Source of the DNA: Candidatus Omnitrophota bacterium
GTDB lineage: Bacteria; Omnitrophota; Gorgyraeia; Gygaellales; Profunditerraquicolaceae
Length of the DNA stretch: 64,000 nucleotides
NCBI GenBank assembly: GCA_041650835.1
Contig: JBAZKL010000003.1
Location: forward strand, 99,682-163,681
Direction of reading: 5' to 3'
Positions 31,249 through 63,495 of this stretch are shown here, one piece after another; the first letter of the stretch is position 1; each line of letters begins with the position of its first letter. The notes under the pieces were generated by a model. That model searched no databases. It worked only from the letters and a program-made list of their open reading frames with translations, and was not told the origin of the DNA. Made by a program: the position numbers and the translations under genes.

Positions 31249-31271
31249 ATTTAAGCTGGTACGTATCCCGA

Positions 31272-32552: not shown

Positions 32553-32571
32553 ACTACACCTCCTTAAATGA

Positions 32572-35037: not shown

Positions 35038-35160
35038 CTTAACTTGTCATACCTAATTACCAATAATTAAGTCACAGGTCACAAAGAATCAGAAACTAGT
35101 GAATTAGAAGATCGAAAGGCTGGAAAGACGAGACTCTGGGGACTAAAAATCGAAGCTATA

Positions 35161-36834
35161 TTATACTGTTTTGTCCTGTAATTTAAACTTTTGTACCGTT
35201 TCCTTTAATTCTACGGCCAAACGGGCAACTTCCTGGCTCGAAGCGGCAACTTCCTGCATGGAAGCAGTTTGCTCCTGGGTATTCGCCGAAACATGCTCTA
35301 TCGCGGTTGCCGACTCTTTAGCTATCTGCGTAACTTCGCTTATTACCTTTACCATGCCCTCTATCTCAGCAACACTATCCTGGCCGGTAGAAGCAATATG
35401 GTTAACAAATACGGTAGCCTCCTGGGCAACCTTATTAATCTCCCCCAAAACCTCAGTTATTTTAGCTACCTGGGCCCGGCCGCCCTGGACTTCTTTTGAA
35501 CTGGCTTCAATGGAATTAACCGCGCGATTAGTTTCTTCCTGGATCAACGTGATCAGCCCCCCGATCTTACGCACAGCTTCAGCTGCGCCCTCAGCGAGCT
35601 TTCTAACTTCTTCGGCAACTACCGCGAAGCCTCTCCCCGCGTCTCCAGCCCTGGCGGCCTCAATTGCCGCGTTAAGCGCCAAAAGATTGGTCTGATCCGC
35701 GATAGAAGTGATAGTCTCGGTGATCTCTCCTATCTGCTGCGAAGTCTTGCCAAGCCCCTGAACAACAGAAGTTGTCTCTAAGACCGTATTTGTCAAATGG
35801 CTTATTCTTTCTACAGTTTCCAAAGCTGCGATACGCGCGCTTTCCGCGCAAGCCGTTGTCTGGCCAACCGCCCTATGCGCCATTTGAGCATCTTTAACCA
35901 CATCCTTAAGATTATCAGCTGCCCGGCCCATAGCTTCAAATACCCCATTGATCTGCTTTGCCTGAGTATTGGCGCCTTTACTTACCTGCGCCACGGAATA
36001 AGCGACTTCTTGCGTTGAAGAACTCATTTCCTGAATAGTATGCGTCGTCTCTTGTAAAGAAAACGCCACCTTATCGGCAATTCCGCTGATCTGAGCGATC
36101 ATGTCGCGTAACCCTTGAGACATCTTAGAGAATGCTTTCGACAACTCCAGCATCTCATCATCGCCCTTCATCTCGATCGCCCCCAAAGAAAGATCACCGG
36201 AAGAGATTTTCTTAGCAATAAGCATAAATGCCGACAAGGGCCGTAAAACATGCTTTTCCAGGAAAAGGCTGTACAGTACACCCCCGCCGACCAAGACTAA
36301 GACGCATAAAAAAACCGCCAGCATGATAATGCCGTTAACATCCGCGATGATATACTTATCCGTAATTCCCACCCTCAAGATACCAACGGCCTGAGTGCCT
36401 GACATAACAGGAATAACCGCCTCGAAAACACTCCCATAGCCGGGCCGCTTAAGGATAAACTGGCTTTTTGCCTTAAGACAGCGCTTCTCATCCGCTGTTT
36501 TGTTCAGGTATTTTCCCTCCAGGTCCCGGCGCGTGGAAACCAACACCAACCCTTCTTTCTCAAGAAGGATAATATACTCAATATCGAAATTCCTGCCCCG
36601 GGCATCTTCGAATAAACGGGAAATCCGGTCTATCGCGCCGGATTCTAAAAGGTCCCTGCATGAAAGCGCAAGGCTTGACGCCATGTTCTCAGCCGCTAAC
36701 TGCTGCATCGAAAAAAGCTGGGCGCGCATTCTATAGCCGACAACCGACAGCACTATGGCAGTTACCAGGGAAACAACCCCGAGAAAATAAACCATCATTT
36801 TCAATTTCATCCGGGAGCTATTCGCGAGATCCAT
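35161..36834 (-). CDS. Methyl-accepting chemotaxis protein
   Basis: 557 aa with two TMs flanking a ~150 aa periplasmic domain, a HAMP domain, and the signalling hairpin [38 protein letters not shown]. Confidence 0.9.
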
Positions 36835-36979
36835 ATACCCTCTGAAGCTGTTGAGAATTTAACGAACGGTTACTGATCTTGTATTGAATAAACAGCAAAA
36901 ACTGCTTTCGCTTGATAAAAAAGGCTGGAACAAATCAAAAACCCTGAAGACATCCTTCGATAAGGCAGGCAGGCGAAGC

Positions 36980-37504
36980 TTAACTTTCTTTTTCTTTACC
37001 TTCTTTCAGCACAGACGCGGAGGAGCCCTTCACCCGCTCAACATGCTGCACTTCTTCGGGGCTCAAGACGCTCTTAAGGTCTAAAAGGATCAAAAGCCTG
37101 TCTTTTAATTTCCCGACCCCCCAGATATAATGTTCAGGGATCTCCGTCATAACCAGCGACGGGACGTCTTCAACATATTCTGAAGATAACCGCAACACTT
37201 CTGAAACCGAATCCACGATCATGCCCACGGTGTTATCGCCGAATTCCACGATAACGATACGGGTGCGCTCCCCGCGTTCTTTAGCGGTAATACCCAATCT
37301 TTTCGCCAAATCAATAACAGCGACTACCTGGCCGCGCAAATTAACGACACCTTCGATAAAAACAGGAGCCTTGGGTAAATAGGTGATTTGCAGCAACCGG
37401 ACAATTTCCCTTACCTGGCTTATATCAACACCAAACTCTTCTTCCCCGATCGTGAAAACAACCAACTGGTATTCTTTTAATTTACTTTCAGCCATGAGGA
37501 TCAC
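36980..37504 (-). CDS. cheW: Chemotaxis coupling protein CheW
   Basis: 174 aa with a CheW-like SH3-type domain (EYQLVVFTIGEEEFGVDISQVREIV...). Confidence 0.9.
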   Translation of the reverse strand: MILMAESKLKEYQLVVFTIGEEEFGVDISQVREIVRLLQITYLPKAPVFIEGVVNLRGQVVAVIDLAKRLGITAKERGERTRIVIVEFGDNTVGMIVDSVSEVLRLSSEYVEDVPSLVMTEIPEHYIWGVGKLKDRLLILLDLKSVLSPEEVQHVERVKGSSASVLKEGKEKES

Positions 37505-37531
37505 CCCCTGTTATGAACTGCCCGGAAATAA

Positions 37532-38143
37532 CTATTCTTTTAATCCTAATAAATCAAATATTTTCAACAATGAGTCCGTTGACGGGAACAACAAAAACAA
37601 GCCTTCGAGATTCAACCCCTTAACTTTCATATCGGTCTTGATCACAATCGCCTCTTCCGAATACTGCGCGATCTGTATAAAAATAAAATCCAGGATAGCA
37701 CCCACCATATCCATCGCTAACGAAGGGATAGAAGTAAGGATGTTTTGGTGGACCATGTCGGCCAAAGCGGATAAATACGACCCGCCTAAGATATTCGCTG
37801 ATTCTTTTAAAGAGGACTGGAACAAGGAATCGTTAAAATCGATCTGGTCTTTAGGCAAACCCAGAAGGCTGCTGGATAAAAGCCGCGCGTCATTCGGAGA
37901 AAACAATAAAAATATCCTCCCGTAAATATCCCCCTTGATCTCCATATCTAAAACAAAAAATAACCGGTCCATTTCCCCTAATAATTTATAAATCTGCTCC
38001 AAGGGAACCATGGTAACTTCAGGGACGTTGATCTCGACTTTCTCAGCGACCAGATCGGCCAAGGCAGTAGCGGCATTGGCAGCGCCGATAGTGCCGATCT
38101 CTCTTATCAGATCCATCTGAGCTAAAGAAAACTTTTTATCCAT
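37532..38143 (-). CDS. cheC: CheC-family phosphatase
   Basis: 203 aa. Repeat 1 is DLIREIGTIGAANAATALADL, with N replaced by T. Repeat 2 is SLKESANILGGSYLSALADM, with E..N retained. Confidence 0.75.
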   Translation of the reverse strand: MDKKFSLAQMDLIREIGTIGAANAATALADLVAEKVEINVPEVTMVPLEQIYKLLGEMDRLFFVLDMEIKGDIYGRIFLLFSPNDARLLSSSLLGLPKDQIDFNDSLFQSSLKESANILGGSYLSALADMVHQNILTSIPSLAMDMVGAILDFIFIQIAQYSEEAIVIKTDMKVKGLNLEGLFLLFPSTDSLLKIFDLLGLKE

Positions 38144-38164
38144 GACCGATTCCTTTTTTATTAA

Positions 38165-39208
38165 CTATATTTTTTCTAATATCGCTTTCGCTATATCAAA
38201 AACAGGCAGCACCGCGTCAGACAAGCCGGCATCATAAATAACTTTCGGCATACCCCAGACAACCGATGTCTTCTCATCCTGGATAATTACCGTACCGCCT
38301 TTTTCTTTTATTTTCCTTACCCCTTCCAAAGCGTCCTTACCCATCCCCGTCAAGACTACCACGACAACATTCTTACAGTCATAATTCTCAACGACCGACA
38401 ACAGTGTCACATCCGCTGCAGGGCGGACAAAATTCACGAGAGGCCCCTGGTTCAATTTTATCCTTAAAACCCCTTTTTCATTTTCAATCCCCATATGGGA
38501 GCCGGCAGGCGCGACAAAAGCTTTTCCAGCGACAAGAATATCGCCCTCCTCAGCCTCTTTAGCCTTGATCTTTGACTGCCAGGAGATCCTTTCAGCAAAG
38601 CTTAAGGTAAATCCCAGCGGCATATGCTGGATTATCAAAAAAGACGCGGGGACATTCGCGGGGATATCCCGCATAACATCTAACACCGCTTTCGGGCCGC
38701 CCGTTGAAGCCGCTATCAAAACCAGCTTCTTAAAGGCGATCGGTTTTACCTCCGCGCCAAAAGTATCTGCTTTAAATTGTTCTTTTGAAGAGACCTTCGT
38801 CACCTCAACCTTAGCCGCTAATTTTATTTTCGCGATAATCTCATCTTTAAGCTTATTGATATCTAAAGAAATCTCGCCTGATGGCTTGGCAACAAAATCA
38901 ACCGCCCCTAACTCCAGCGCCCGCAATGTCGCGGTCGCGCCCGCGCGGGTATACGCGGAGATCATGACAACGCGCGATGGCTGTTTTTTCATTACTTCTT
39001 CAAGGACGCTTAACCCATCCAGCAAAGGCAAGTTTATATCCAAAGTGATCACGTCGGGCTTGAACTCGTATATTTTTTCCAAAGCCTCTTTACCGTCTTT
39101 CGCTTTACCGATTATTTCCAAAGCCGGATCGCTCTCAATAATATCGGAAATGATCTGGCGCATCAAGAATGAATCGTCAACGATTAAAACACGTATTTTA
39201 TTTTCCAT
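38165..39208 (-). CDS. cheB: Chemotaxis methylesterase CheB (REC plus methylesterase)
   Basis: 347 aa. It has an N-terminal receiver domain (VLIVDDS...DVITLDINLP) and a C-terminal catalytic domain (ASTGGPKAV, IIQHMPLGFT). Confidence 0.9.
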   Translation of the reverse strand: MENKIRVLIVDDSFLMRQIISDIIESDPALEIIGKAKDGKEALEKIYEFKPDVITLDINLPLLDGLSVLEEVMKKQPSRVVMISAYTRAGATATLRALELGAVDFVAKPSGEISLDINKLKDEIIAKIKLAAKVEVTKVSSKEQFKADTFGAEVKPIAFKKLVLIAASTGGPKAVLDVMRDIPANVPASFLIIQHMPLGFTLSFAERISWQSKIKAKEAEEGDILVAGKAFVAPAGSHMGIENEKGVLRIKLNQGPLVNFVRPAADVTLLSVVENYDCKNVVVVVLTGMGKDALEGVRKIKEKGGTVIIQDEKTSVVWGMPKVIYDAGLSDAVLPVFDIAKAILEKI

Positions 39209-39696
39209 TATACTTCTTTCTCTCCCCAGGAAACCGTTTTAACCAGGACCTTACCGTCATCCAAATTAAGCTCGATCGTTCTCCCGAAACTACCGCCCGT
39301 TTCCTGGACATCGACCTTCATATCTAAAGCCTTAAGCGTGATCATGGCAACTTCAAGGTTCTTTTGGCCGACATTAAGGATACTATCGGAAGCAATAAAA
39401 CCGAACATATGCGCTCCGCCGAAAAGCTTGGTAACAATTGAGCTGCGCGACACGCCCCGCTTCTCCATTTCTTCGACCATCTTCGTAAGAGCGGAGTTGA
39501 CAAACCGGCTGGGATTTGATTTAATCTTGGCTTTCTCGATATCAGGGAGCATCGGATGCGCCATCACGCCGATCTTCTTTGACGGGTCATACATAGTGAT
39601 ACCTAAACAGGAGCCAAGCCCCCGGGTGATCAATCGTGCAGGGGCTTCGGATATTTCCATTTGAGCCATATTTACTTCAATGGTTTTTGCTTCCAT
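39208..39696 (-). CDS. cheD: Chemoreceptor glutamine deamidase CheD
   Basis: 162 aa with GLGSCLGITMYD and GVMAHPMLP motifs. Confidence 0.85.
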   Translation of the reverse strand: MEAKTIEVNMAQMEISEAPARLITRGLGSCLGITMYDPSKKIGVMAHPMLPDIEKAKIKSNPSRFVNSALTKMVEEMEKRGVSRSSIVTKLFGGAHMFGFIASDSILNVGQKNLEVAMITLKALDMKVDVQETGGSFGRTIELNLDDGKVLVKTVSWGEKEV

Positions 39697-39709
39697 GATA
39701 ATCGTACCC

Positions 39710-40081
39710 CTATCCTCCTATAACTCTTTTTAATGCCTCCACGACGCGTGAAGGTTGAAAAGGTTTTGTTACAAAATCCTTGGCACCTGCCTGAATAGCT
39801 TCAACAACCAAGGAATGCTGCCCCATAGCCGAAACCATGATGATCTTCGCCTGCGAATCCACTTTCATGATTTCCTTGACCGCGCCAATACCGTCGATCT
39901 CTTCAACCTTCGGCATGACAATATCCATCGTGACTAAGTCGGGTTTAAGCTGCTGATATTTATCGATCGCATCTTTGCCGTTCTCAGCCTCACCGCAAAT
40001 CTCTATACCTTCCTTCTTGAGAATATCGGAAAGCATCCGACGCATGAACAACGCATCATCAACAATTAATACCCGTGCCAT
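39710..40081 (-). CDS. cheY: Chemotaxis response regulator CheY
   Basis: 123 aa single-domain receiver (LIVDDALFMRRML, DLVTMDIVMP, SAMGQ, KDFVTKPF). Confidence 0.9.
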   Translation of the reverse strand: MARVLIVDDALFMRRMLSDILKKEGIEICGEAENGKDAIDKYQQLKPDLVTMDIVMPKVEEIDGIGAVKEIMKVDSQAKIIMVSAMGQHSLVVEAIQAGAKDFVTKPFQPSRVVEALKRVIGG

Positions 40082-40136
40082 CTGCTACCTCCTTTGTATT
40101 TTTGAATCAGGCCTTCTTTAAAGTCCCGGAATACAT

Positions 40137-40982
40137 TTATCCGATTTTCTGGTAAATCTTATTCTTATTGCCCGGTTCTGCCGCCGTGAATAAATCTTTT
40201 TGCCAAACATTTTCCACTTTGCCGACGGTCAAATACCCTTTCGCGTTAAGCGAGCTATAGAACTTCCGGGTAAATTCCTCCTGCTGTTGGCGGGTGAGGT
40301 AAATCATAATGTTCCGGCAGCAAACCAGGTCCATGAACTGCAAATACGGTTCGGTTATCAAATTGTGCTGCTGGAACTTCACCATCCCCTTTATTTCGTC
40401 TTTCAATTTGTAAACGTTATTATAAACTGGTATGAAATATTTATCAAGCGTTTTCTTATCTAACTTTTTTAACTCGATAGCCTTATATTCGGCTTTCGCC
40501 GCTTTATCCAATGCTTCCCGGTCCATATCGGTAGCGATGATCCTGAGGGAATAATCCCCCCGGCTGGCCAATTCTTCTTTCAGCATGATCGCCAGGGAAT
40601 ACGGCTCTTCTCCGGTCGCGCACGCCGCGGACCAAACCCGCAGCACCCGGTTATTCATTTCGGCCTTACGCTTGAGGATGTCCGGGATCACAACGCTGCG
40701 CATTGCCTGGAAAACTTCTATATCGCGGAAGAACTCGGTAACATTAACGCCAAGGGTATTCAATAAAAACCCGAATTCTTCGGGGGTCTTTCGGATATAC
40801 CCCTCATAATCCACATACCGCTCCAGCTTCAGATTCGACATACGCACGCGCAAGCGCCGCAAAACAAAACTCTTACGATACGAGCTTAAGTCGATACCCT
40901 TTTGTTGCCGGATATAAGCAAGGAGCGACAAAAATCCCGGATCTTTTAAATATTCCGCTTCCTGGGGATCCTGCATATTCAT
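40137..40982 (-). CDS. cheR: Chemotaxis methyltransferase CheR
   Basis: 281 aa with a CheR N-terminal helical domain and a SAM-binding domain (RVWSAACATGEEPYSLAIML). Confidence 0.9.
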   Translation of the reverse strand: MNMQDPQEAEYLKDPGFLSLLAYIRQQKGIDLSSYRKSFVLRRLRVRMSNLKLERYVDYEGYIRKTPEEFGFLLNTLGVNVTEFFRDIEVFQAMRSVVIPDILKRKAEMNNRVLRVWSAACATGEEPYSLAIMLKEELASRGDYSLRIIATDMDREALDKAAKAEYKAIELKKLDKKTLDKYFIPVYNNVYKLKDEIKGMVKFQQHNLITEPYLQFMDLVCCRNIMIYLTRQQQEEFTRKFYSSLNAKGYLTVGKVENVWQKDLFTAAEPGNKNKIYQKIG

Positions 40983-40989
40983 TCTATAA

Positions 40990-41253
40990 TTAATGACGCG
41001 GGTTCTTGCTGATATGCAAGATCGCTTTTGTTAATTCTTTAACGACGTCTGCGCGGAACTGGGTGCCTTGTTCATTGAGCTTGGTAAACACCCGCCCCTT
41101 ATCGGTAATGACATAATTCGGCGGTAGCCTGTTCAAAGCCCAAACCATAATATCAAACTTGCATTTCTGGCATTTACATATATCCTCGATCTCGGAGAAT
41201 AATTCATTCAACTCATCTTCAACAATATCTTCCATGTAATTATGTATTTGCAT
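40990..41253 (-). CDS. ComFB-family protein (late competence ComFB-like; candidate cyclic-dinucleotide receptor)
   Basis: 87 aa. It shows the ComFB hallmark cysteine cluster and downstream motif ICKCQKCKFDIMVWALNRLPPNYV. It is embedded inside the che operon with an 8 bp gap to cheR. Confidence 0.75.
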   Translation of the reverse strand: MQIHNYMEDIVEDELNELFSEIEDICKCQKCKFDIMVWALNRLPPNYVITDKGRVFTKLNEQGTQFRADVVKELTKAILHISKNPRH

Positions 41254-41412
41254 GAATGCCTCCTTGTAGCTTCATTATTCGGCTGCTGCAACACCGATAA
41301 CCTTACACCCCCCGCGCTGATCGCACCTTGACTTATCGGATAGCCAAGTGCGCGCTTTCTGCGCAGGAATTGCGCGGGGTATGCTGCTTTCTGCAGCACC
41401 GATAACCGAATA

Positions 41413-43560
41413 TTAAACTCTATCCTCAAACAATATCTGAACCCTAGCCCCTTCAGTTAAAGGCGTCACAAATCCCGCAGGGCTATCATTAACCAGGATC
41501 CTGATCTTTTTCCCAAAGCCCTTGTAAGGATCAAAGTCAATATACTTGAATATATCGGAAAGCAGGATCTGTCTTTTCTTTACGTAATAGACCTTTATAT
41601 CCGCGCCATCGATCAAGAATTCATCAAGTTTGACCTGCTGGCCGTTCATAAAGGCCTGCACCGCCTCAAAGGCCATATCAATATCTTTACCGTCTACGGT
41701 CACATGTATCGTATCATGCATTTTAGGCAAGTCAATAATATCTTTGATCCGGTAATAGGTCGGGGTATCCGCGACAAATTCCAGGAAATCATTTTCCTTC
41801 AATTCAGCATCCAAGCCGGTCAATTGCCCATTAAGCCTCAGCGTAAAATTCTGCTGGGTCAATATCCGCGGGGCCTCATTGACATTAACCAGGATCTGGC
41901 GTTCAGACAAATTATCCATGCCGATACCCTGAAACTCCAAAAGATCGCGAACCCGGGGGCCAATCGTTTCAATAACAGCGCGGTCGGGCACCATTGCTTC
42001 CGCAGCGCGCCGGATACCGTTCACCAAAACAGGGGCGTTGAATTTCACCTGCTGACGGTTAAATATTACGGAAACCGCCTGAGGGGCGACAACTTCCTGC
42101 AAACGAACACACCCGTCAACGCCGTCAACGGCTTCAACAAAGGTGAGGGAATCCCCATCTTCTACTTGATCAGCGAGAGAATTAACCGGGTTACCGTTTA
42201 AACTTACCGTTGCTGAGCCGCCGAGGCTACCTTTAAAAATCCGCAGCTCCCCATTGACTTCAGCCGTCAAAGACAAACCGGGGCGGGGAAACAGCTTCTT
42301 GTTCACAATCACCCCTGATGCCGTCAATACGGCCATGATATCTTTTTTTTGCTGAAAATCCAGCATCCGTAACGGCCGGCCGTTGACCGTAACATTAATA
42401 AAACGCAATCCTAAAGACTGCATCGTCATGAGCGTAATACCTATGGGAGTTATGGTTTCCGGCCCCTTGAGCTTCCCGGTAAGGTCATGGACACTCTTGA
42501 TCATATGCGGCAGGCGTACGCCAACCTTGTGAGGGGCGATCCCAAAGCCTTTCGCAAGCTCCTGGACCAGGTCAAACGTCTGGCTTGCCCCTCCGACAAC
42601 AACAACAGCTTCGGGAGGCCCTTCATTCAACGCAAGGCCGGCCTGAGCGATCGATGCCGCTAATTTGTTAACGGCAGGTAACAGGTTTTTCTTAAGGGTG
42701 AAAATATCGATACGCTGAGGCTTTCCCCAAATATCTTCATAGGCGACCATGACATCGTGATCCAGGGAGCGCTTGATCCGTTCCGCGGAAGAGAAATCCA
42801 CCAGCAAAACCTTGGAAATATATTCCGTGATCTCATCACCCGCTTCGGGGACCATGCCGTAGGCGAAAACAAACCCGCCCTTGGTCAAGGCCAGATCAGA
42901 CGTTCCGGCACCGATATCAATAAGGACGATATTAAGGCTGCGCATCTCCGGGGGGACAATAGCATTGAGAGCGGCAATAGGCTCAAGGGTCATATTAATC
43001 GCCTCAAGCCCGGCCTTTTCCAACACGGCGAACATGCTGTCTAAAACTACGCGCGGCAAGAATGTCGCAATAACCTCGACACAGATCATTTTCCCGCGAT
43101 GGCCCCGGAGGCTGGAGATCCGGTTATTATCCAGCTCGTAATAAACAGGACTGTAGCCGACGCAATAAAATTCAGAGAGCTTGTTCCCCGAATTAGAAAC
43201 GATCGCCTCGATAGCTTCCAACTCCAGGTCACGCACGATCGCCGGAGTGATCTCCTGCTCCGTGCCAAGTTCTTTGGAAACCTTACTTTTATGCGCGGCC
43301 AGATTTCTCCCGGCGACCGCTACCCCGACTTGCCTGAGCTTCCTGCCCAGGCGCGATTCAAGGCTTTCTTTTATCTTAACGACGGTCTTGACGACCTCTT
43401 CAATGCTATGGATCTGCCCGTCGAACATCGGGCGCGCCGCATGTTCCCGGACCTCCACATCGACGATCTCGACATGCTCATCCTGCTGACGGGCAACAAT
43501 CCCCATCACCTTGCGTGTCCCGATATCCAACGCAAATATTTCCCGCGCCATAGGAATCAT
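41413..43560 (-). CDS. Actin-like ATPase (FtsA/PilM/EutJ superfamily) N-terminal half fused to a C-terminal array of 4-5 small ThiS/MoaD-like (beta-grasp) repeats
   Basis: 715 aa. The N-terminal ~370 aa carry ASKHA motifs: FALDIGTRKV (phosphate-1), LIDIGAGTSDLAL (phosphate-2) and VVVGGASQ (adenosine). The C-terminus repeats a V/L-x-V/L-N-G...L..GD.I.F/V pattern (VTVNGRPL; SLNGNPVNSLADQVEDGDSLTFV; RLNGQLTGLDAELKENDFLEFV; MNGQQVKLDEFLIDGADIKVYYV; LVNDSPAGFVTPLTEGARVQILF). Its start overlaps the upstream cheC by 4 bp (ATGA). Confidence 0.6.
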   Translation of the reverse strand: MIPMAREIFALDIGTRKVMGIVARQQDEHVEIVDVEVREHAARPMFDGQIHSIEEVVKTVVKIKESLESRLGRKLRQVGVAVAGRNLAAHKSKVSKELGTEQEITPAIVRDLELEAIEAIVSNSGNKLSEFYCVGYSPVYYELDNNRISSLRGHRGKMICVEVIATFLPRVVLDSMFAVLEKAGLEAINMTLEPIAALNAIVPPEMRSLNIVLIDIGAGTSDLALTKGGFVFAYGMVPEAGDEITEYISKVLLVDFSSAERIKRSLDHDVMVAYEDIWGKPQRIDIFTLKKNLLPAVNKLAASIAQAGLALNEGPPEAVVVVGGASQTFDLVQELAKGFGIAPHKVGVRLPHMIKSVHDLTGKLKGPETITPIGITLMTMQSLGLRFINVTVNGRPLRMLDFQQKKDIMAVLTASGVIVNKKLFPRPGLSLTAEVNGELRIFKGSLGGSATVSLNGNPVNSLADQVEDGDSLTFVEAVDGVDGCVRLQEVVAPQAVSVIFNRQQVKFNAPVLVNGIRRAAEAMVPDRAVIETIGPRVRDLLEFQGIGMDNLSERQILVNVNEAPRILTQQNFTLRLNGQLTGLDAELKENDFLEFVADTPTYYRIKDIIDLPKMHDTIHVTVDGKDIDMAFEAVQAFMNGQQVKLDEFLIDGADIKVYYVKKRQILLSDIFKYIDFDPYKGFGKKIRILVNDSPAGFVTPLTEGARVQILFEDRV

Positions 43561-44177
43561 GTTTGATTTATACTAAGGATCTTATGCACGCTTTCCTGCG
43601 CCAATAAGAAAAGGACGAAGACATTCAACTCGACATCTTCGATAAAAAGACGGTTCTCGATCGGCAGGATATACCCGGCATCGCCCTTATGCAGCCCGGC
43701 GATCAAGTGACGGACCAAACGAGCCATCGTATCCATGTGGATCTGATTTACCGACGGGACTAATTTATACAGCTTCAAGAACTCAGTCACCGCGTTCAAG
43801 TAGGAACAACAGAGGATATTAGAACTTTCGGAGAGGGCGGAAGCATCCGCAAGATTAAAAAGCTGGCTGGTCCCGGCTTTCCGGCGCGCGAGAATATCGA
43901 TCATTGAAAGCGCGCTCTTGAGCGAGAACAAAACCAGCATATCACCGGTTAAAGACCCCAAAATATTCACGCTGACCGCCATGCCTATTTCATGGGGGTC
44001 GGATAAGAATTCGGCGCTTAAAACCTCAGGGAATGAAAGGATCTTAACGCTCGGGACATTAATAAGCACTTTCTTGTTAAAAAGCTGGCCTAAAGCCGTG
44101 GCGGCATTACCCGCGCCGATATTGCCGATTTCTTTTAATACGTCTAATTGCTGAGATGTTAAATTCAATCCGCTCAT
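43557..44177 (-). CDS. cheC: CheC-family phosphatase
   Basis: 206 aa with a canonical first repeat (LDVLKEIGNIGAGNAATALGQL) and a second repeat (SALSESSNILCCSYLNAV). Confidence 0.85.
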   Translation of the reverse strand: MSGLNLTSQQLDVLKEIGNIGAGNAATALGQLFNKKVLINVPSVKILSFPEVLSAEFLSDPHEIGMAVSVNILGSLTGDMLVLFSLKSALSMIDILARRKAGTSQLFNLADASALSESSNILCCSYLNAVTEFLKLYKLVPSVNQIHMDTMARLVRHLIAGLHKGDAGYILPIENRLFIEDVELNVFVLFLLAQESVHKILSINQT

Positions 44178-44189
44178 TTTTACCTTTGC

Positions 44190-46184
44190 CTAACGCAGGC
44201 TCATCGTATCTAAAATCAACGCGACTTTCCCGTCACCCAGTATCGTCGCTCCCGCAATTCCCTTTGTCCGCTTGATCAACGCCCCTAAAGGCTTGACGAC
44301 AATATCTTGTTCGCCTAATACCTGGTTGACGACCAAACCGGCTGCTTTTGTGCCGTATTCAATAATGATCACGGACAAACTTGTATCTTCGGCGGCATCA
44401 AGCTGTAACGCCAGCTTCTTAATATCGAGTTCTTTCTGCAGCCGGATGATCGGGATGATCTCATCCCTGACCCGCGCCACTTCAAAATTCTGTATGATCC
44501 GGAGCTCTTCTTCCTGGATCTTAATGATCTCCCGGACGCTCATTAAGGGGATCGCAAAGACCTCGTTACCCACCTTGACCAGCATCGCCTTGATGATCGC
44601 CAACGTCAACGGCAGCGTCAGGATAAAACGGCTCCCCTTACCGGGCTCGGTTTCAAATTCAAGCCTGCCCCCCAGGGATTCGATCTTGGATTTAACGACA
44701 TCCAGCCCTACGCCCCTGCCTGAAATATCGGTTACTTTCTTGGCGGTCGAAAAGCCGGGCAGCGTGATCAGGTCAAGGATCTTTTTTTCATCAAGGCCTA
44801 CGGCTTCTGCTTCCGTTATCAGTCCTTTCGTAAGAGCAACGTTCTTGACTGTCGTGAAATTAACGCCCCTGCCGTCATCGGCTATCTCAATGAAGATCTG
44901 GCCTTTCTGCCTGCTGACCTGAATAAGCAATTTGGCGTTCGGCTTCTTGCCGGCAGCGCTGCGCTCCTCGGGGTTTTCGATACCATGATCAATAGCATTG
45001 CGTATCAAATGCACCAGCGGGTCGCTCATTTCATCAAGGACCACGCGGTCCAATTCGATCTCACTCCCGCTGATCTCCAGCTCCACCTGTTTATTCTGCT
45101 TCCGGGCCAGGTCCCTGACCATGCGCGGAAAAGTATCCAGGATATAAGCGACCGGTAATAACCGCGTCTGCATGATCTCATCTTGCAGCGACGAAATAAG
45201 CCGGTCGAGCATCGAACTGACATCTTCTAAAGGGTCTATCTTATACTGCTGAGAGATCTGCATCAGGCGGATCTTAGCGATCGCCAGCTCCCCCATCAAA
45301 TTCATGATCTTATCCAAACGTTCCACCGGCAGGCGCATACTCTGGATCTTCTTGACATAATGCTGGGCAGGAGCAGCGACGGTAGCGGATGAAGCAGCCC
45401 CCCCTGCTACGGCAGGACGGACATTGATTTCAAGGGAATTGATCTCCACCTTCTCGATCTCCGAGATAGTCAACAAGACCCGGTTGATCGTTTCTTGAGT
45501 CTCTTTTGTTTCCAGGATCAAGGTAAAGGTAAAATCAAATTTACCCTCTTTCAGGCAATCAAGCGCAGGCAAGGACTTAATGATCTCTCCGCTGCGTTTG
45601 ATATTATTAACCACCAGGTACGCGCGGGCCTCACGCATGACACAATCCTTGGAAATGATCACTTTGACCTTATAGATATTATGCTTGAGGTCCTTTGCCA
45701 GGTTTATTTTTTTAAGCTCTTCTTCGCTGAACTCAATATCCCCGTTCCCTTCTAAAACCTTCTTCGCCGGTCCGGTTGAACCCGAGGCAATTTTCTCCAC
45801 ATCGGGCTCCTGGGTAAAAATATCCTTCAAATCCTGCAAAAAAGGATTAATGTCGACCTTGGATTCCTGTTTGGCTTTTATTTCCTCGACTAATTTTTCC
45901 AGGAGGTCAACGGTAGCAAAAAGCTTATCGATGATCTCTGAGGTGACCTTCTTGCGCTGGCTGCGCAACTCATCCAGAAGGTTCTCCATATGGTGGGATA
46001 ACTGGGTAAGTTTATCAAACCCCATCGTTGCCGACATGCCTTTTAAGGTATGCATACAACGGAAGATCTCATTCAACGAACTTAAGTCGGCGGGATTTTC
46101 TTCAAGTTTAACCAGGCAATTACTGATAACGCTGAGGTATTCTTCGGACTCGGTAAGAAATAATTCTCTATAGCTATCCTGCAT
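44190..46184 (-). CDS. cheA: Chemotaxis histidine kinase CheA
   Basis: 664 aa. It has an HPt domain (FRCMHTLKGMSATMGF), a dimerisation domain, a HATPase_c domain (DDGRGV, GRGVGLDVV) and a C-terminal CheW-like domain. Confidence 0.9.
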   Translation of the reverse strand: MQDSYRELFLTESEEYLSVISNCLVKLEENPADLSSLNEIFRCMHTLKGMSATMGFDKLTQLSHHMENLLDELRSQRKKVTSEIIDKLFATVDLLEKLVEEIKAKQESKVDINPFLQDLKDIFTQEPDVEKIASGSTGPAKKVLEGNGDIEFSEEELKKINLAKDLKHNIYKVKVIISKDCVMREARAYLVVNNIKRSGEIIKSLPALDCLKEGKFDFTFTLILETKETQETINRVLLTISEIEKVEINSLEINVRPAVAGGAASSATVAAPAQHYVKKIQSMRLPVERLDKIMNLMGELAIAKIRLMQISQQYKIDPLEDVSSMLDRLISSLQDEIMQTRLLPVAYILDTFPRMVRDLARKQNKQVELEISGSEIELDRVVLDEMSDPLVHLIRNAIDHGIENPEERSAAGKKPNAKLLIQVSRQKGQIFIEIADDGRGVNFTTVKNVALTKGLITEAEAVGLDEKKILDLITLPGFSTAKKVTDISGRGVGLDVVKSKIESLGGRLEFETEPGKGSRFILTLPLTLAIIKAMLVKVGNEVFAIPLMSVREIIKIQEEELRIIQNFEVARVRDEIIPIIRLQKELDIKKLALQLDAAEDTSLSVIIIEYGTKAAGLVVNQVLGEQDIVVKPLGALIKRTKGIAGATILGDGKVALILDTMSLR

Positions 46185-46212
46185 AAAAGGCCTTCAAGGA
46201 TTGTGTATTGTA

Positions 46213-46821
46213 TTATTCGCCGATGCTTTTAATAATAAGCTCCAGCCCCACCGAGTTGGGGATCAGGAAAAAATGCCCCCGGATGGAAGCTTTGAGTTCC
46301 GTAAATTCAGATTCGATCAAAAGGGCAAACTCAGACGTACAACTTAATTCGATCAAAACATAATCAAGCATTGCCCCCGCCATATCAATGATCAACTCCG
46401 GCACAGTCGGGACCAACCCCAAGCCGACAAAGCTCCCTAACGCCCCCAAATAAGCGTTAGCGAGTATCACCCCTACTTCTTTTAACGCAGAACGCTCGAC
46501 ATCGCCGATAACGCTTCCGCCGGAAACCGGCTTGCCGGTCATCAGCCCCGCGAGGGCAAGCGCGTCTTTCTGGGAAAAGATAAAAATAATGGTGCTCGGT
46601 AAATCGCCGAGGACCCGTAAAACCAGGCCCGCGACAAGCTGATCATCGCCGCCGACGGCATTCGGGACCTCTTCAATAGGAAGAAACAATATCCGGGGGA
46701 CAACGATACTAATATTGGTATCGAGCAACTGCGATAGCGCGGTCGCGGCATTACCGGCACAAATATTGCCGATCTCCTTCATCGCGTCTTTTTGCTTATC
46801 GGTAAAAGCCATATCAGCCAT
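46213..46821 (-). CDS. cheC: CheC-family phosphatase
   Basis: 202 aa with a canonical first repeat (DAMKEIGNICAGNAATALSQLL). The second repeat has E but N replaced by V (SALKEVGV). Confidence 0.85.
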   Translation of the reverse strand: MADMAFTDKQKDAMKEIGNICAGNAATALSQLLDTNISIVVPRILFLPIEEVPNAVGGDDQLVAGLVLRVLGDLPSTIIFIFSQKDALALAGLMTGKPVSGGSVIGDVERSALKEVGVILANAYLGALGSFVGLGLVPTVPELIIDMAGAMLDYVLIELSCTSEFALLIESEFTELKASIRGHFFLIPNSVGLELIIKSIGE

Positions 46822-46869
46822 TTCGCTTACGCTCCTCCTGCGTTTACGTGCAAATAAATAAACGGTCGG

Positions 46870-47256
46870 TTACAATCTTTTTTCCGCCGGAAGCAAAGCA
46901 TTACGGACCGCCTCCACCAGCCGGATCGCCTGGACCGGCTTCGTCACAAAATCTTTGGCTCCCGCCCGTATCGCCTCCACAACCAACGACTGCTGCCCCA
47001 TAACCGAACAAATCAATATCTTCGCGTTCGGGTCGATTTTGACAATTTCCCTCACAGCGCCGATACCGTCAAGCTCTTCCATCATAGGCATGACAATATC
47101 CATAGTCACCAGATCAGGCTTGAACTCTTGATACTTCACAACCGCATCTTTGGCGTTCGAAGCTTCAACGCAGATCTCGTAACCTTCTGCGGTCAAGATC
47201 TTGGCGATCATTTGGCGCATAAAAACAGCATCATCAACTATCATAATTTTTGCCAT
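46870..47256 (-). CDS. cheY: Chemotaxis response regulator CheY (second copy, first gene of the operon)
   Basis: 128 aa single-domain receiver (IMIVDDAVFMRQMI, DLVTMDIVMP, KDFVTKPV). It is ~60% identical to the CheY at 39710..40081. Confidence 0.9.
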   Translation of the reverse strand: MAKIMIVDDAVFMRQMIAKILTAEGYEICVEASNAKDAVVKYQEFKPDLVTMDIVMPMMEELDGIGAVREIVKIDPNAKILICSVMGQQSLVVEAIRAGAKDFVTKPVQAIRLVEAVRNALLPAEKRL

Positions 47257-47273
47257 ACATACCTCTCGTAAAA

Positions 47274-47301
47274 ATTATAAGCTACTCTGACATTATGTCA
47301 A
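47274..47301 (-). promoter_or_regulatory. Candidate sigma70-like promoter for the che operon
   Basis: On the minus strand: TTGACA (47301-47296), a 16-nt spacer, then TATAAT (47279-47274). The RBS AGAGG and the ATG follow within ~18 nt. The predicted TSS would fall at or inside the SD, so the leader would be very short. Confidence 0.3.
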
Positions 47302-57523: not shown

Positions 57524-57901
57524 TTATAACCCGTGATCATGATCCCGCAGTACGCCTGTGGTATTGCTGTACAAAGCCAACCCTGTAGAATCATAAACAC
57601 TGGCCCTTCTCGGGCAGGTAGGTACCGCTCCGACCAGAAATGGTTCTGCGTGACGGTTAGACGCCGTACCCAAAGAAGCGATCGATACCGGGAAGCCGTT
57701 ATTATCCATACGGTTACGAGCGGCTGATTTAGCATAAAAAGCTGAGATCGCGCTCCTTAAAGAACCGATGTTCCCCTGGCATGCTGCTTGATCAGCATCT
57801 TCTTTCAAACTAACAAAACGAGGAATTGCAACTGCCGCTAAAATACCTATGATAACAATGACCATTACCAATTCAATAAGCGTGAAGCCTTTCTTATTCA
57901 T
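57524..57901 (-). CDS. Type IV pilin / T2SS major pseudopilin (prepilin-type N-terminal methylation domain)
   Basis: 125 aa. It has a class III signal peptide and conserved N-terminus (MNKKGFTLIELVMVIVIIGILAAVAIPRF), with Glu at +5. A GGAGG RBS is present and it is followed by the strong terminator. Confidence 0.85.
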   Translation of the reverse strand: MNKKGFTLIELVMVIVIIGILAAVAIPRFVSLKEDADQAACQGNIGSLRSAISAFYAKSAARNRMDNNGFPVSIASLGTASNRHAEPFLVGAVPTCPRRASVYDSTGLALYSNTTGVLRDHDHGL

Positions 57902-57987
57902 TTCTCACCTCCTCTTAAAAGTTTACCATATTGACCGTTTTATTGTCAAGTATTTTCGTAAATTAATCTATCCTCACCCGACGATTA

Positions 57988-58524
57988 TTACTCGACAAAT
58001 GTATATGATACCATATCAAAAGTGATCTCCTGATAGGGCAAAAGGGCCTTCTTCCGGGTAATAGTAACAGCCCCCACCGACACGAGCCTTTCCATCGCGC
58101 TCAACTTCTCAAGAAAATTGATCGCCTGCGGATAGGTGCTTTCATATTTCATTTTGATAAAAAACTGCTTCAAACCGTTATTTGCCGGGTCAGGCTTGCC
58201 TGAATCGGTTATTTTAAAGCTGCCGCCTTTTAATCCCGCTTGCGTACTGACGCGAATAAGGTCCTTGACTAAACTAAAAGGCTTCTCTTCATTAACAGGG
58301 ACCACTTTATTTATTTTCTGCTCTTCCTGCTTCAAAGCCTCATTTTTGCGCTCCAACTCGGCTAAATACTTGTTTGCGTTCTCTTCTTTTTCATATTCCG
58401 CGGTTTTCTCCGCCAGCGACGCCTTTAAATCAATATTTTCTTTAAGGTACCAGCCGAAAAGCGCGATAACCAGCACCAGAATAACAATAACAACTATATT
58501 AACGATCAGGTTCAATTTTTTCAT
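57988..58524 (-). CDS. PilO/GspM-like pilus assembly protein
   Basis: 178 aa with an N-terminal TM, then a coiled coil, then a C-terminal globular domain. It is positioned directly after the pilM-pilN fusion. Confidence 0.5.
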   Translation of the reverse strand: MKKLNLIVNIVVIVILVLVIALFGWYLKENIDLKASLAEKTAEYEKEENANKYLAELERKNEALKQEEQKINKVVPVNEEKPFSLVKDLIRVSTQAGLKGGSFKITDSGKPDPANNGLKQFFIKMKYESTYPQAINFLEKLSAMERLVSVGAVTITRKKALLPYQEITFDMVSYTFVE

Positions 58525-60263
58525 TTTCCACCCACACTGGCGGTAACCGTGAATTTCCTCACCTTTACCGACGTCAATACGATATCACCGGATGAGCCGG
58601 CCATTTGCGCGGTAAATCTTTCCAGTTTTAACGGCGTAATACTCACATCCCTGAAATACTTCGTACTTTCCAGCTTATGCCGGAATGCCTCCACGATCTC
58701 AAGCGCCTGTTCATAGTCGCTTGAAACTTCGGCCTTTATCGTAACAATACCCGCTTCAAGCGTCAATTTCGTTAAAACTATTTCTTCAGGGACCGCTTTC
58801 GGCAACTCCTGTAACGCTGCGCGTAAAGCATCTTTGCCTGCTGCCAACAGTTTAACCGCAGCGTCTTTCTTCCCGACAAACTGCTCTTTAGCCTGAAGTT
58901 CACTCAATCGTTTGCCCAGCTTTTTAAATCTTTTCAATTCGAATTCCTTGCTTTTGATATCCTTACGGATAAGCGCGTTATCGAGGGTAACTTTAAGCGC
59001 GGCTAAACTAAAAAGAGAAATAACGACAAAACTAAGGACCAGCAGGATCAAACGCCGCCGGGCGACAATTTCTTTTTTCTTGATCTCAAGCGGCAGGAAA
59101 TTAATAACCGTTTCCTCCGCCGCTTTCGTCTTGATGCTTCCTAACGCGAGGCTGGCGGCATTCACAAAAATGGGGGAATTAACCACCTCATTCTCATTTG
59201 TTTTTTCTTTGACTATCTGGACATCGGCAAAAGGCATGATCAGATGACACTTACCGCCTACCTGAGGGGCGATTGAAGCAAGAAAATGTTTGATCTGGCT
59301 GACGCCGCCAAGAAAATAGATCTGATCAACTCGCTTACCTTCCGATTGCTCCTTATAAAAAACCAGCGACCTGCGTAACTCATGCATGATACGCTCCAGA
59401 TGCGGCTGCCACAACATCCGAAGCTCCAAAGCATTGACCCGGGGGCCGTCAGCGCTTAATTCCTGGCCTTCCTCATATTTCTGACGCATGATCTCTTCAG
59501 CGATCGCGACCTTATCTTTCAGGTCAAAGGGGATTTGAGGAATACCCTGCTCCTGGATCGCTCTCTCCGCGACTTCGCGGGCAACACCCAATTGCCGCGC
59601 GACATCCACGATAATATCATTAAATCCGAAGATAACGTTACGCAGGAACACTAATTTAGAATTACGCACCACACTGATATTGATAGACGTGGCGCCGATA
59701 TCCATACAAATAACGGATTCATCTTTTTCTTTAGCTTCCTTGGGAAGCAGGTTTGATAAAACGCATCCTGCAGGAGTAATTGAGACCGGGGCAATATCAA
59801 AGGAGGCAAAAACATCAATGATCTTCTGAATGTATACTTTTTCAGTCCTGACAACCAAAACTTCCGACTTCTTGGACTTGGCGACGATCTGTTCACCAAG
59901 CATCAAGCATTCAAAAACATGATGGATGCCGCTGACCGGGATCATCTTATGCTTGGCTTCATTGACCGCCGCAAAGAGTAATTCTTTTTTATTTATGACC
60001 GGAAGGAATATCGAAGTAGCGGTGATCGACGGCGGAGGCAGGTTAACGCTGATACGGGCAACGCGCAGGTTTTTCTCAGGGATAAACTTGGTTATTTCCT
60101 GCAGGAAACTATCGCCCTTGATATACAAAAGCCCGTTGGGAAGCGCCTCAGTAGGCGTAGGGAACAAAAAGGCATTCAACAAAACCGGTTTACCTTTAAG
60201 CTCTAACTCGACAACCTTGGTAAACCGCGAACCGATATCGATCCCTATTAACATATTAGGCAT
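58521..60263 (-). CDS. Fused PilM (actin-like ATPase) and PilN (TM plus coiled coil) protein
   Basis: 580 aa. The N-terminal ~370 aa are PilM-like (MLIGIDIGSRFTKVVEL...ICMDIGATSINISVV). A TM helix (LILLVLSFVVISLFSLAAL) then leads into a C-terminal PilN-like periplasmic region. Confidence 0.7.
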   Translation of the reverse strand: MPNMLIGIDIGSRFTKVVELELKGKPVLLNAFLFPTPTEALPNGLLYIKGDSFLQEITKFIPEKNLRVARISVNLPPPSITATSIFLPVINKKELLFAAVNEAKHKMIPVSGIHHVFECLMLGEQIVAKSKKSEVLVVRTEKVYIQKIIDVFASFDIAPVSITPAGCVLSNLLPKEAKEKDESVICMDIGATSINISVVRNSKLVFLRNVIFGFNDIIVDVARQLGVAREVAERAIQEQGIPQIPFDLKDKVAIAEEIMRQKYEEGQELSADGPRVNALELRMLWQPHLERIMHELRRSLVFYKEQSEGKRVDQIYFLGGVSQIKHFLASIAPQVGGKCHLIMPFADVQIVKEKTNENEVVNSPIFVNAASLALGSIKTKAAEETVINFLPLEIKKKEIVARRRLILLVLSFVVISLFSLAALKVTLDNALIRKDIKSKEFELKRFKKLGKRLSELQAKEQFVGKKDAAVKLLAAGKDALRAALQELPKAVPEEIVLTKLTLEAGIVTIKAEVSSDYEQALEIVEAFRHKLESTKYFRDVSITPLKLERFTAQMAGSSGDIVLTSVKVRKFTVTASVGGK

Positions 60264-60266
60264 ACT

Positions 60267-61487
60267 TTAACCGCCGACTTTGGAAACTACTGACGTAAGA
60301 GGCAAGAACACTGAAAGCGCGATCCCGCCGACAACAACGCCCATGGTAACGATCATAAGGGGTTCAAACATGGCAAACAAGCCCCTGACCGCCGCCGGGA
60401 CTTCTTTATCATAATACTGATTGACCTTTTCCAGTGTGTCGCTTAACGTACCTGTCTGTTCACCGACACCGATCATGCGCACGACCAGATAAGGGAACTT
60501 TCCTGACATTTGCAATGCTGTAGAGATTTTTTCTCCCACATTGACATAGTCGCGGGCTTTAACGATCAAAGTCTCAAAATATTTATTCCCGGTTACTTCC
60601 GAAGCGATACCTAACGCCGCGAAAACATTGACACCGGAACGTAATCCCAAAGCAAAGGTGTGGCAAAACCGGGACAAGGCTATTTTTTCCATCAGGACAC
60701 CGACAACCGGTATCCGCAGCTTCCATTTCGCGATCAAGTATTGGCCTTTTTCCTGAGAATTAACTACTTTATACCCGATAACCCCCCCGATAATTATAAG
60801 CAGCCCGGCCCACCAATACCCCGCCGCTAAATCGCTGACCGCTAAGACGATCTGCGTTGGTAAGGGTAAGGCGACTCCCAGGTCATCGAACATCGGTTTA
60901 AACTTAGGGATAACCACAATAACGAGAACAAGGACCACCAGGATCATGGTAGTAAAGAGTATGATCGGATAAATAGAAGCTTCCTTCACCTTCGACTTTA
61001 ACTCCTCCTGCCACTCCAGAAGCTTCGCTAAATCCCCCAACACAAAAGGAAGCTTACCCGTGCTTTCTCCGGCGCCGATGATCGAAGTATATAATTTAGG
61101 GAATGACTTCGGATAATCGGATAACGCGTCTTTTAACGACCTGCCGGATTCCACATTATTAGCGATACTCTCCACCACCGCTTTTACTTTCTTTGTCGGG
61201 GCGGCTCCCGCTAAATCACGCAAAGCCGCCAGTAACGTAATACCGGCATCCAAAGAAATAGCCAGCTGTGTGGTAAAATTAAGCAATTCCGAAGCATTAA
61301 GCGTATTGATATGATGGGCTCTTTTAGAGCCTGCCTTCGATCCTTGCGATGAAGAAACCCGCGAAAAGGTAAGATAATAGCCGGATTTGCTGAGCTGGCC
61401 GGATAACTCTATTTCATTCTCGGCAGAAAGGGTCCCCTGGATCAATTTCCCGGCAGCATCCCTGGCTTTATAGGTATATGTTTGCAT
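60267..61487 (-). CDS. Type II secretion system F-family inner-membrane platform protein (PilC/GspF)
   Basis: 406 aa. It has duplicated T2SSF domains and three TM segments. Confidence 0.85.
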   Translation of the reverse strand: MQTYTYKARDAAGKLIQGTLSAENEIELSGQLSKSGYYLTFSRVSSSQGSKAGSKRAHHINTLNASELLNFTTQLAISLDAGITLLAALRDLAGAAPTKKVKAVVESIANNVESGRSLKDALSDYPKSFPKLYTSIIGAGESTGKLPFVLGDLAKLLEWQEELKSKVKEASIYPIILFTTMILVVLVLVIVVIPKFKPMFDDLGVALPLPTQIVLAVSDLAAGYWWAGLLIIIGGVIGYKVVNSQEKGQYLIAKWKLRIPVVGVLMEKIALSRFCHTFALGLRSGVNVFAALGIASEVTGNKYFETLIVKARDYVNVGEKISTALQMSGKFPYLVVRMIGVGEQTGTLSDTLEKVNQYYDKEVPAAVRGLFAMFEPLMIVTMGVVVGGIALSVFLPLTSVVSKVGG

Positions 61488-61489
61488 AC

Positions 61490-61912
61490 TTAGTTTTCAA
61501 CCCAAGATAAATTAACTTGAGAATAAGAATTCGGAACGCCTATATCCACCCTTAAGCGGACACTAATAGTCTTGTTAATATCCCCGATCTGGCCATGTCC
61601 TGTTACCGTTACTTCGCGGTATACCGCCGGGCTGGTATCGTCCCGATTGGCAAGCTCAACCCAATAAAAACCATCTCCTAAGGAAACTTTACTTGCCTCA
61701 AGGATCCCCGTCCAGTTCCAATTATTCTTCAACTCATACTTTGCCCGTTCAACACCTGCTTGCGCTAAATAAAAAGCAGTGATCCCCTTCTTTTGCAGCG
61801 CTCCCACCTTAACCTTGGCTTCCCATATCGTTGATAAAGCGCCGACCAGGAAACTGACTACTGCCAGAAGGAAGAAAACAAATAGTAACACCTGGCCCTT
61901 ATTCCTGCGCAT
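61490..61912 (-). CDS. Minor pilin-like protein (PilX/GspK-like?)
   Basis: 140 aa. It has an N-terminal hydrophobic helix (GQVLLFVFFLLAVVSFLVGALS) but no canonical G-F-T/S-L-x-E cleavage motif. Confidence 0.35.
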   Translation of the reverse strand: MRRNKGQVLLFVFFLLAVVSFLVGALSTIWEAKVKVGALQKKGITAFYLAQAGVERAKYELKNNWNWTGILEASKVSLGDGFYWVELANRDDTSPAVYREVTVTGHGQIGDINKTISVRLRVDIGVPNSYSQVNLSWVEN

Positions 61913-62574: not shown

Positions 62575-62578
62575 ACCT

Positions 62579-62971: not shown

Positions 62972-62977
62972 TCCAGG

Positions 62978-63445: not shown

Positions 63446-63495
63446 GATAAATTATATACTAAACGAAGATTACCGGCAATATGTTTATCTTATTT

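Follow-up and report, generated by a model that had tools for sequence, protein, structure and literature searches.

Chemosensory pathways are well catalogued, and the auxiliary proteins accepted in them are CheC, CheD, CheV, CheX, CheZ and the archaeal CheF. Positioning proteins are also encoded in che clusters, namely the ParA-type ATPases ParC of Vibrio and PpfA of Rhodobacter. The output of Che systems to type IV pili is poorly understood beyond a few models. Here we describe a gene, called X throughout, that lies inside a che operon in a 64,000-nucleotide stretch of DNA (the window) from a Candidatus Omnitrophota bacterium (contig JBAZKL010000003.1 of assembly GCA_041650835.1). Its product joins an N-terminal half with the actin fold of FtsA and PilM to a C-terminal array of five ubiquitin-fold (beta-grasp) modules, and belongs to an uncharacterised and widespread family of actin-fold proteins in which this array is new and of which one subgroup is found in chemosensory operons. 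We tentatively read X, with somewhat less than even confidence, as a scaffold or adaptor, dependent on nucleotide, in a CheC/CheD-type pathway by which type IV pili are probably controlled.

The closest described relative of the N-terminal half is FtsA (TIGR01174, PDB 7q6f/1e4f), which shares with X the actin fold of four subdomains, the SHS2/1C insert and the ATP-binding motifs. FtsA ends in an amphipathic membrane helix, whereas X has a beta-grasp array of 335 aa in its place, and ftsA lies beside ftsZ in the division cluster while X is found in a che operon. PilM (TIGR01175, PDB 2ych/5eou), the second-best structural match, has the FtsA-like fold too; pilus genes lie near X in several loci and some homologues of X are named PilM. 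However, pilM is followed by pilN-pilO(-pilP-pilQ), whereas X is followed by comFB and cheR, with no pilN. As to the C-terminal half, its modules share the half-motif "VNG…(D/E)GDxI" with the ThiS/MoaD/SAMP proteins and with TGS domains, but ThiS and MoaD are free carriers ending in Gly-Gly and the modules of X are internal tandem repeats. Tandem ubiquitin arrays (7eb9, 9cd2/9d59 and UBL1-5 of USP7) also have several beta-grasp units in one chain, but there is no sequence similarity between them and X, and X has no conjugation or defence context. Finally, the motor adaptors FliM/FliY and archaeal CheF, like ParC and PpfA, are encoded with che genes and resemble X in the proposed role only; their folds are unrelated, and the likeness is one of functional analogy rather than membership. 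Archaeal CheF is an adaptor to the archaellum motor and interacts with CheY, CheD and CheC2 (PMC2666748).

Gene X in the che operon

The gene and the context that defines it are the following.
41413..43560, minus strand: whole gene X, ATG start, coding for a 715-aa FtsA-like ATPase with a five-module beta-grasp array
35161..47301, minus strand: surrounding che operon, from a promoter-like site through a gene for a methyl-accepting chemotaxis protein (MCP)
43557..44177, minus strand: cheC-family gene upstream of X, its TGA stop overlapping the ATG of X (ATGA)

The operon has the order cheY, cheC, cheA, cheC, X, comFB, cheR, cheY, cheD, cheB, cheC/cheX-like, cheW and MCP, with all genes in the same direction. 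A sigma-70 consensus (TTGACA-16-TATAAT, matching at 12/12 positions) is located at 47301-47274 on the minus strand, just upstream of the first cheY (47256), and from its sequence it is likely to be the promoter of the operon. The TGA of the upstream cheC and the ATG of X overlap in the sequence caaacATGAttcc. The first-pass annotation of this DNA had placed X between cheC and a comFB-like gene with ATGA coupling, which is correct for the upstream cheC but not for comFB, found 159 nt downstream. Its view that X is co-expressed with the che genes finds support in the putative promoter, in the overlap with cheC and in the conserved gene order described below. X is therefore placed as a chemosensory component would be: co-directional, translationally coupled and with synteny kept across divergent lineages. 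A database entry identical to X, from a Candidatus Omnitrophota metagenome-assembled genome (MAG), is annotated from Met4 (712 aa) and was deposited with no more specific name than "cell division FtsA domain-containing protein".

The N-terminal half: an FtsA/PilM-type actin fold

42421..43560, minus strand: N-half of X, residues 1-380, FtsA/PilM-type actin fold with the SHS2/1C insert at about 85-170
Residues 9-18: phosphate-1 motif
Residues 191-197: connect motif, TLEPIAA
Residues 212-225: phosphate-2 motif
Residues 319-327: adenosine motif

The motifs of the ASKHA superfamily reported before for the N-terminus (FALDIGTRKV, LIDIGAGTSDLAL and VVVGGASQ) were all found in the translation of X. 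Its classification as an ATPase of the FtsA/PilM type is upheld by profile, PDB-sequence and structure matches, which all lead with FtsA. The N-half matched Pfam FtsA at 8.8e-10 and TIGR01174 at 5.9e-28, and the best sequence match in PDB was FtsA of Vibrio maritimus (7q6f, 3e-13). An AlphaFold2 model of X built on 34 homologues had a mean predicted local distance difference test score (pLDDT) of 87.2, and Foldseek comparison of this model with PDB gave FtsA as the best match (E 1.7e-28, template modelling (TM) score 0.73, normalised by the target and with the whole FtsA chain covered), followed by PilM, EutJ and MreB. The subdomain set of FtsA, 1A-1C(SHS2)-2A-2B, is present with an agreeing order of secondary structure elements, and homologues of X match Pfam SHS2_FTSA. 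The scores are nevertheless far below the curated cut-offs, both for FtsA (98 vs 175.85 bits with TIGR01174, 50.3 vs 409 with NF007009) and for PilM (40.8 vs 133 bits with TIGR01175, 19.5 vs 27 with PF11104), and X is consequently a protein of the FtsA/PilM fold type and not an orthologue of either.

Conservation was studied in 75 family members only 32-61 % identical to X. Residues G14, T15, D215, G217, A218, T220, D222, G323 and G324 are invariant in these homologues, D12 is conserved in at least 90 %, and E193 also belongs to the positions that are invariant or at least 90 % conserved. The ASKHA motifs DIGT (12-15), DIGAGTSD (215-222) and GG (323-324) are all in place. The nucleotide site, whose loss would have undermined the first proposal, is intact and conserved, and the N-half is predicted to bind ATP.

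One suggestion made with the first-pass annotation was that X is a cytoskeletal or scaffolding element that positions receptor arrays or the platform of the pilus. It would then polymerise with ATP and place or partition these structures in the cell, as an actin-fold counterpart of ParC and PpfA. Structurally X is indeed closest to FtsA, and the FtsA structures matched include filaments (7q6f, described as a "double filament", and 7q6i); the ATP site of X is intact and the gene is encoded inside che operons. However, X has neither a membrane-targeting helix nor any obvious anchor, its C-terminus is a beta-grasp module, and the tight pairing with cheC in either orientation (see below) suggests that its partner is a signalling protein and not the receptors. 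The positioning ATPases known from che operons have a different fold and could serve as an analogy only. We consider this explanation rather unlikely, and an adaptor of the CheC/CheD-type pathway remains the preferred reading.

The C-terminal half: five beta-grasp modules

42277..42414, minus strand: beta-beta-alpha cap, residues 383-428, opening the C-terminal region
42127..42276, minus strand: module 1, residues 429-478 (…LTAEVNGELRIFKG…VSLNGNPV…VEDGDSLTF)
41953..42090, minus strand: module 2, residues 491-536
41761..41916, minus strand: module 3, residues 549-600, also with partial Pfam ThiS/TGS matches
41572..41727, minus strand: module 4, residues 612-663
41416..41523, minus strand: module 5, residues 680-715, shorter and without the leading hairpin

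The four to five short repeats seen at first in the C-terminus are five modules. Segments cut from the 75-sequence alignment were compared profile against profile with HHalign, and the five modules aligned in every pairing with probabilities of 97.5-99.3 % (E 7e-12 to 6e-21), far above 30 column-shuffled controls that reached a maximum of 2.8 %. In the model, the cap (383-428) and module 1 form together the full ThiS-like beta-grasp topology (strand, strand, helix and further strands), and modules 2-4 are predicted as a hairpin plus "xxNGxxV … (D/E)GDxIxF" units with short helices between them. A separate model of residues 381-715 had a pLDDT of 87.0. When the whole array was compared by Foldseek, the list was led by ubiquitin-fold chains (E 4.6e-6 to 2.8e-4, at TM scores of 0.11-0.22 and 7-10 % identity); the top match was linear tetra-ubiquitin (7eb9, E 4.6e-6), followed by bacterial multi-ubiquitin-domain proteins (9cd2/9d59), including one of E. 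coli, and by USP7 with its five ubiquitin-like (UBL) domains.

The repeats had been said to resemble ubiquitin-like sulfur carriers and beta-grasp domains. The fold holds, and the C-half has the beta-grasp fold of the ThiS/MoaD family (PF02597), but no single repeat reaches the Pfam ThiS threshold: isolated repeats score 15-19 bits, all below 22.5. Pfam ThiS (1.1e-6; 29.5 bits vs 22.5) and TGS (1.3e-5) pass solely as summed scores. Other family members have summed ThiS scores of up to 65.9 bits, together with partial matches to Ub-Mut7C, RnfH, TGS and S4. A profile of the C-half searched against PDB sequences gave nothing significant, with Atg23 and CpaB at chance level only (E about 0.1-0.3). 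X closes with a strand (706-713) and the residues …ILFEDRV, with no amphipathic membrane helix and no Gly-Gly. There is no free Gly-Gly in any module, and these are not sulfur carriers or modifiers; an E1-like ThiF/MoeB partner is absent from the operon, where all the genes are che or comFB. In Pfam, NCBIfam, PDB sequences and the full-text literature searched, the repeats matched no family already described in fusion with FtsA-like domains, a match that would have told against the first proposal. An anti-phage role, prompted by the multi-ubiquitin matches, was also considered and rejected, given a chance-level PADLOC match of 15.6 bits and the che gene context.

The weak TGS, S4 and RnfH matches in the family, and the presence of comFB after X in Omnitrophota, could also be taken to mean that the modules are sensors of the SLBB/TGS/S4 kind that bind a ligand or nucleic acid, so that X, perhaps with ComFB, would pass a signal of metabolic or nucleotide origin to the pathway. 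This we find very improbable. Where the C-half is conserved, the residues are for the most part Gly and Asn, often in the NG motif, with no polar cluster resembling a pocket; the Pfam matches are confined to the half-motif held in common ("VNG…GDxI"), and no single stretch passes; and comFB is absent from the che-linked loci outside Omnitrophota.

Distribution and novelty of the family

We searched with the C-half alone in 1.84 billion cluster representatives (clusters at 50 % identity) and found 459 proteins at E ≤ 0.001, of which 183 at ≤ 1e-10, with identities down to 22 %. Nearly all of the 459 are about 700-730 aa long and match over the region of about 385-715. At least 459 clusters share this layout down to so low an identity, and the two-part architecture is therefore old and widespread. 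Longer homologues (738-871 aa) have no additional recognisable domain. Named members come from the archaeal genus Methanolobus, from the Bacilli Robertmurraya and Alkalicoccobacillus, from Desulfitispora, Thermoanaerobacterales and Clostridia, and from MAGs of Omnitrophota or labelled as Elusimicrobia. Their annotations are generic ("FtsA", "PilM", "rod shape-determining protein", "ATPase" and MreB names), and no Pfam or NCBIfam model exists for the protein as a whole or for its C-terminal array. A search of full-text literature, with subscription journals largely outside it, returned no beta-grasp/FtsA fusion and no FtsA-like gene in a che operon. The architecture proposed as novel is thus new to the literature searched, but it was in the databases already, in at least 459 clusters and with FtsA and ThiS Pfam hits.

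The two halves differ widely in conservation. Across Omnitrophota-type, other che-linked and non-che members, 54 positions of the N-half are conserved, against 7 in the C-half that are mostly Gly or Asn, and against the non-che members X has a mean identity of 42 % over the N-half and of 23 % over the C-half. At the level of sequence this pattern fits a conserved, nucleotide-driven engine coupled to a binding array that evolves faster and is adapted to each lineage.

Genomic context

To see the neighbourhood of X elsewhere we surveyed 90 loci with flanks of about 8 kb. Whether orthologues co-occur with che genes, as the first-pass annotation proposed to check, turned out to depend on the subgroup: one is linked to che genes and most members are not. 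Members of the che-linked group come from Omnitrophota, from a MAG labelled as Elusimicrobia, from the genus Methanolobus among the Archaea and from some contigs of metagenomes. In the Omnitrophota-type loci, where X is 53-89 % identical to the protein of the window (aligned columns), the gene order of the window is kept, with cheY-cheC-cheA-cheC-X-comFB-cheR-cheY-cheD-cheB as the recurring arrangement. In Methanolobus zinderi (CP058215.1, 2009407-2031530; locus L007) the order is cheY-cheB-cheA-cheC-X-cheR-cheC-cheC-cheD, and no CheF family match was recorded at this locus. The Elusimicrobia-labelled MAG has pilM(N)-pilO-secretin-cheW-cheR-cheY-cheB-cheA-X-cheC-cheC-cheD-cheY, and four metagenome loci (L012, L014, L044 and L066) likewise have X inside che clusters with gene orders other than that of the window. 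The gene comFB follows X in Omnitrophota-type loci only.

What recurs across these arrangements is the proximity to cheC. In 16 of the 17 loci that bear a cheC-family gene, the nearest one is within 200 nt of X and on the same strand (13 upstream, 3 downstream), and this pairing is the most consistently recurring neighbour relationship of X. Two further loci have cheR as the sole che gene beside X. In a Thermoanaerobacterales MAG (L089, 10001-12208) and a metagenome contig (L075, 7751-9700) the one che gene near X is a cheR directly upstream, and in the former a gene for a large multi-PAS protein comes after it. In the metagenome locus L014 (5581-13789) there is a GH3 glycosidase gene between cheC and X, and genes for a trypsin-FHA protein and a TPR Ser/Thr kinase after X, so that the signalling genes around X here differ from those at the other loci.

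Phylogeny and possible transfer

Of the 15 che-linked proteins, 14 grouped together by neighbour joining, but with a bootstrap of only 37/100; the Omnitrophota-type subgroup had 100/100. A first neighbour-joining tree had suggested strict monophyly of the che-linked proteins; the larger bootstrapped tree gave 0/100 for all 15. With these values (0/100 for the 15, 37/100 for the 14) we dropped the claim of a single recruitment to che clusters.

In the list of the 120 best hits, every archaeal homologue is from Methanolobus. The proteins closest to these are bacterial, with an identity of about 40 %, and this suggests horizontal transfer of a bacterial-type che cluster. An Omnitrophota species has been reported as a parasite of methanogens (PMC10066038), and such parasitism could be a route for the transfer. 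A link to the che2 regions of Methanosarcina that lack CheF (PMC2666748) was considered as well and found unsupported, there being no Methanosarcina among the same 120 hits.

A proposed role in the chemosensory pathway

According to the adaptor reading, X would be a cytoplasmic accessory protein of a chemosensory pathway made of CheA, CheW, CheR, CheB, CheC and CheD. Its N-terminal actin fold would bind ATP and, depending on the state of the nucleotide, either self-associate or clamp a partner peptide, as in FtsA and PilM. The five ubiquitin-fold modules may act as a protein-docking platform, one that evolves faster than the N-half, and most likely would hold the neighbouring CheC-type phosphatase, perhaps also CheD or phosphorylated CheY (CheY-P), close to the target of the pathway. 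In Omnitrophota this target is probably a type IV pilus machine and not a flagellar switch, and X would then be functionally akin to FliM/FliY or archaeal CheF, i.e. an adaptor from the Che signalling proteins to a motor.

The pilus was chosen as the probable target because several of these che clusters have pilus clusters at their side: in L004, L006, L016 and L090 the che cluster directly adjoins genes for type IV pili. A further reason comes from the survey of the whole phylum, in which most Omnitrophota genomes encode type-4a pili and neither flagella nor chemotaxis is mentioned (PMC10066038). The window itself has the following genes.
57524..63933, minus strand: type IV pilus-like cluster (pseudopilins, PilC/T2SSF, PilM-PilN fusion and PilO), about 10 kb upstream
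58521-60263, minus strand: the PilM-PilN fusion, which together with PilO spans 57988-60263

This cluster is a candidate for the output machine of the che system. Its real PilM-PilN fusion has no BLASTP similarity to X, and the possibility that X is a recent duplicate of the local PilM was rejected (E 2.8 for the PilM part against the N-half).

Several observations weigh against a chemosensory role of this kind. About 65 of the 90 loci, with proteins 31-36 % identical and mostly Bacillota-like neighbours, have no che gene within about 8 kb, and hence the ancestral role of the family need not be chemosensory; unlike CheF, the family does not occur exclusively with che genes. The che-linked proteins have just 6 specific positions, too few to define an interface, their grouping in the tree is the one with 37/100 from which the che-linked L044 is excluded, and adjacency to pilus genes was seen in only four fetched loci and, at about 10 kb, in the window.

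These data could be read as indicating a housekeeping actin-like protein, for example an FtsA paralogue of division, shape or envelope, whose ancestral role would have been kept in Bacillota and which was placed next to che genes by chance and then inherited and transferred with the cluster. Most family members stand alone beside housekeeping genes that vary from locus to locus (mutS2, nth, aroA/ccpA, ytxJ, acpS), che-linked and non-che members do not differ in how well the N-half and its ATP site are conserved, and che-specific residues are few. However, linkage to che recurs with varied gene orders in very distant hosts, including one archaeal genus, and appears at least twice in the tree, L044 being apart from the main group. 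Furthermore, X is translationally coupled to cheC and far below the FtsA equivalog cut-off (98 vs 175.85 bits), and Bacillota generally retain a canonical ftsA in the division and cell wall (dcw) cluster. We regard a housekeeping role as unlikely, and continue to prefer the scaffold or adaptor of the CheC/CheD-type pathway.

The adaptor reading can be extended to a broader and more speculative scheme, which we hold to be doubtful. X would represent a new chemosensory class, in which an actin-fold ATPase docks CheC, CheD or CheY-P on its ubiquitin-fold tail and couples the Che phosphorelay to the type IV pilus machine, or itself forms a filament by which that machine is organised, replacing FliM or CheF in organisms steered by pili. 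The module would have moved between bacteria and archaea with the che cluster, and the stand-alone Bacillota proteins would be an unrecognised cytoskeletal family built in the same way.

Other features of the locus

Downstream of X the operon continues as follows.
41254..41412, minus strand: structured spacer of 159 nt between X and comFB, containing GGTTATCGGTGYTGCAG twice
40990..41253, minus strand: comFB-family gene (cyclic dinucleotide, c-di-NMP, receptor family; PF10719, 6.6e-26), 7 nt before cheR
40137..40982, minus strand: cheR, 7 nt after comFB

The spacer has a predicted folding energy of -66.3 kcal/mol (z -3.6 vs shuffles) and no U-tract. The gap between X and comFB is of 15-52 nt in other Omnitrophota-type loci, except in L001, the closest relative (118 nt), and L010 (195 nt). 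The spacer could represent a repeat element that was inserted here, or else an RNA structure with a regulatory role. ComFB is a recently defined family of receptors of cyclic di-GMP and cyclic di-AMP, and ComFB-CheR fusions have been reported from Omnitrophota (PMC12448109). Given these fusions and the position of the comFB gene beside cheR, receptor methylation may be here under the control of a second messenger, and the che system of the window probably integrates a second-messenger signal too.

There are three CheC-family paralogues in the operon (46213-46821, 43557-44177 and 37532-38143, all on the minus strand). Inspection by eye found the phosphatase motif D/S-x3-E-x2-N twice in the CheC adjacent to X and once in each of the others. 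The GC content is 0.517 across X (measured in 42001-44000) and 0.45-0.49 in the adjoining che genes. The region 27912-36834 (minus strand), at the downstream end of the che operon, contains two MCP genes, one at 35161-36834 that has an sCache_3_2 sensor and one at 27912-30272; genes for periplasmic solute-binding proteins and for a porin of the alginate-export type are interspersed with them.

Conclusions

The array makes X a clean case of an ATPase that carries a five-fold chain of ubiquitin folds, and at least 459 clusters of such proteins (at 50 % identity) presently bear generic names that are misleading. The che-linked form is found in the cultivable Methanolobus and the stand-alone form in cultivable Bacilli (Robertmurraya and Alkalicoccobacillus), which makes genetics and biochemistry feasible. 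The Omnitrophota themselves, nanobacteria not yet in culture, are thought to depend on pili in making contact with their hosts (PMC10066038). The function proposed here has been read from genomic context alone, and the finding would surprise specialists in chemotaxis. An ATP-binding actin-fold protein conserved in the che operons of a whole phylum and of an archaeal genus is outside the accepted list of auxiliary proteins, and X may be an unrecognised part of the chemosensory pathway.

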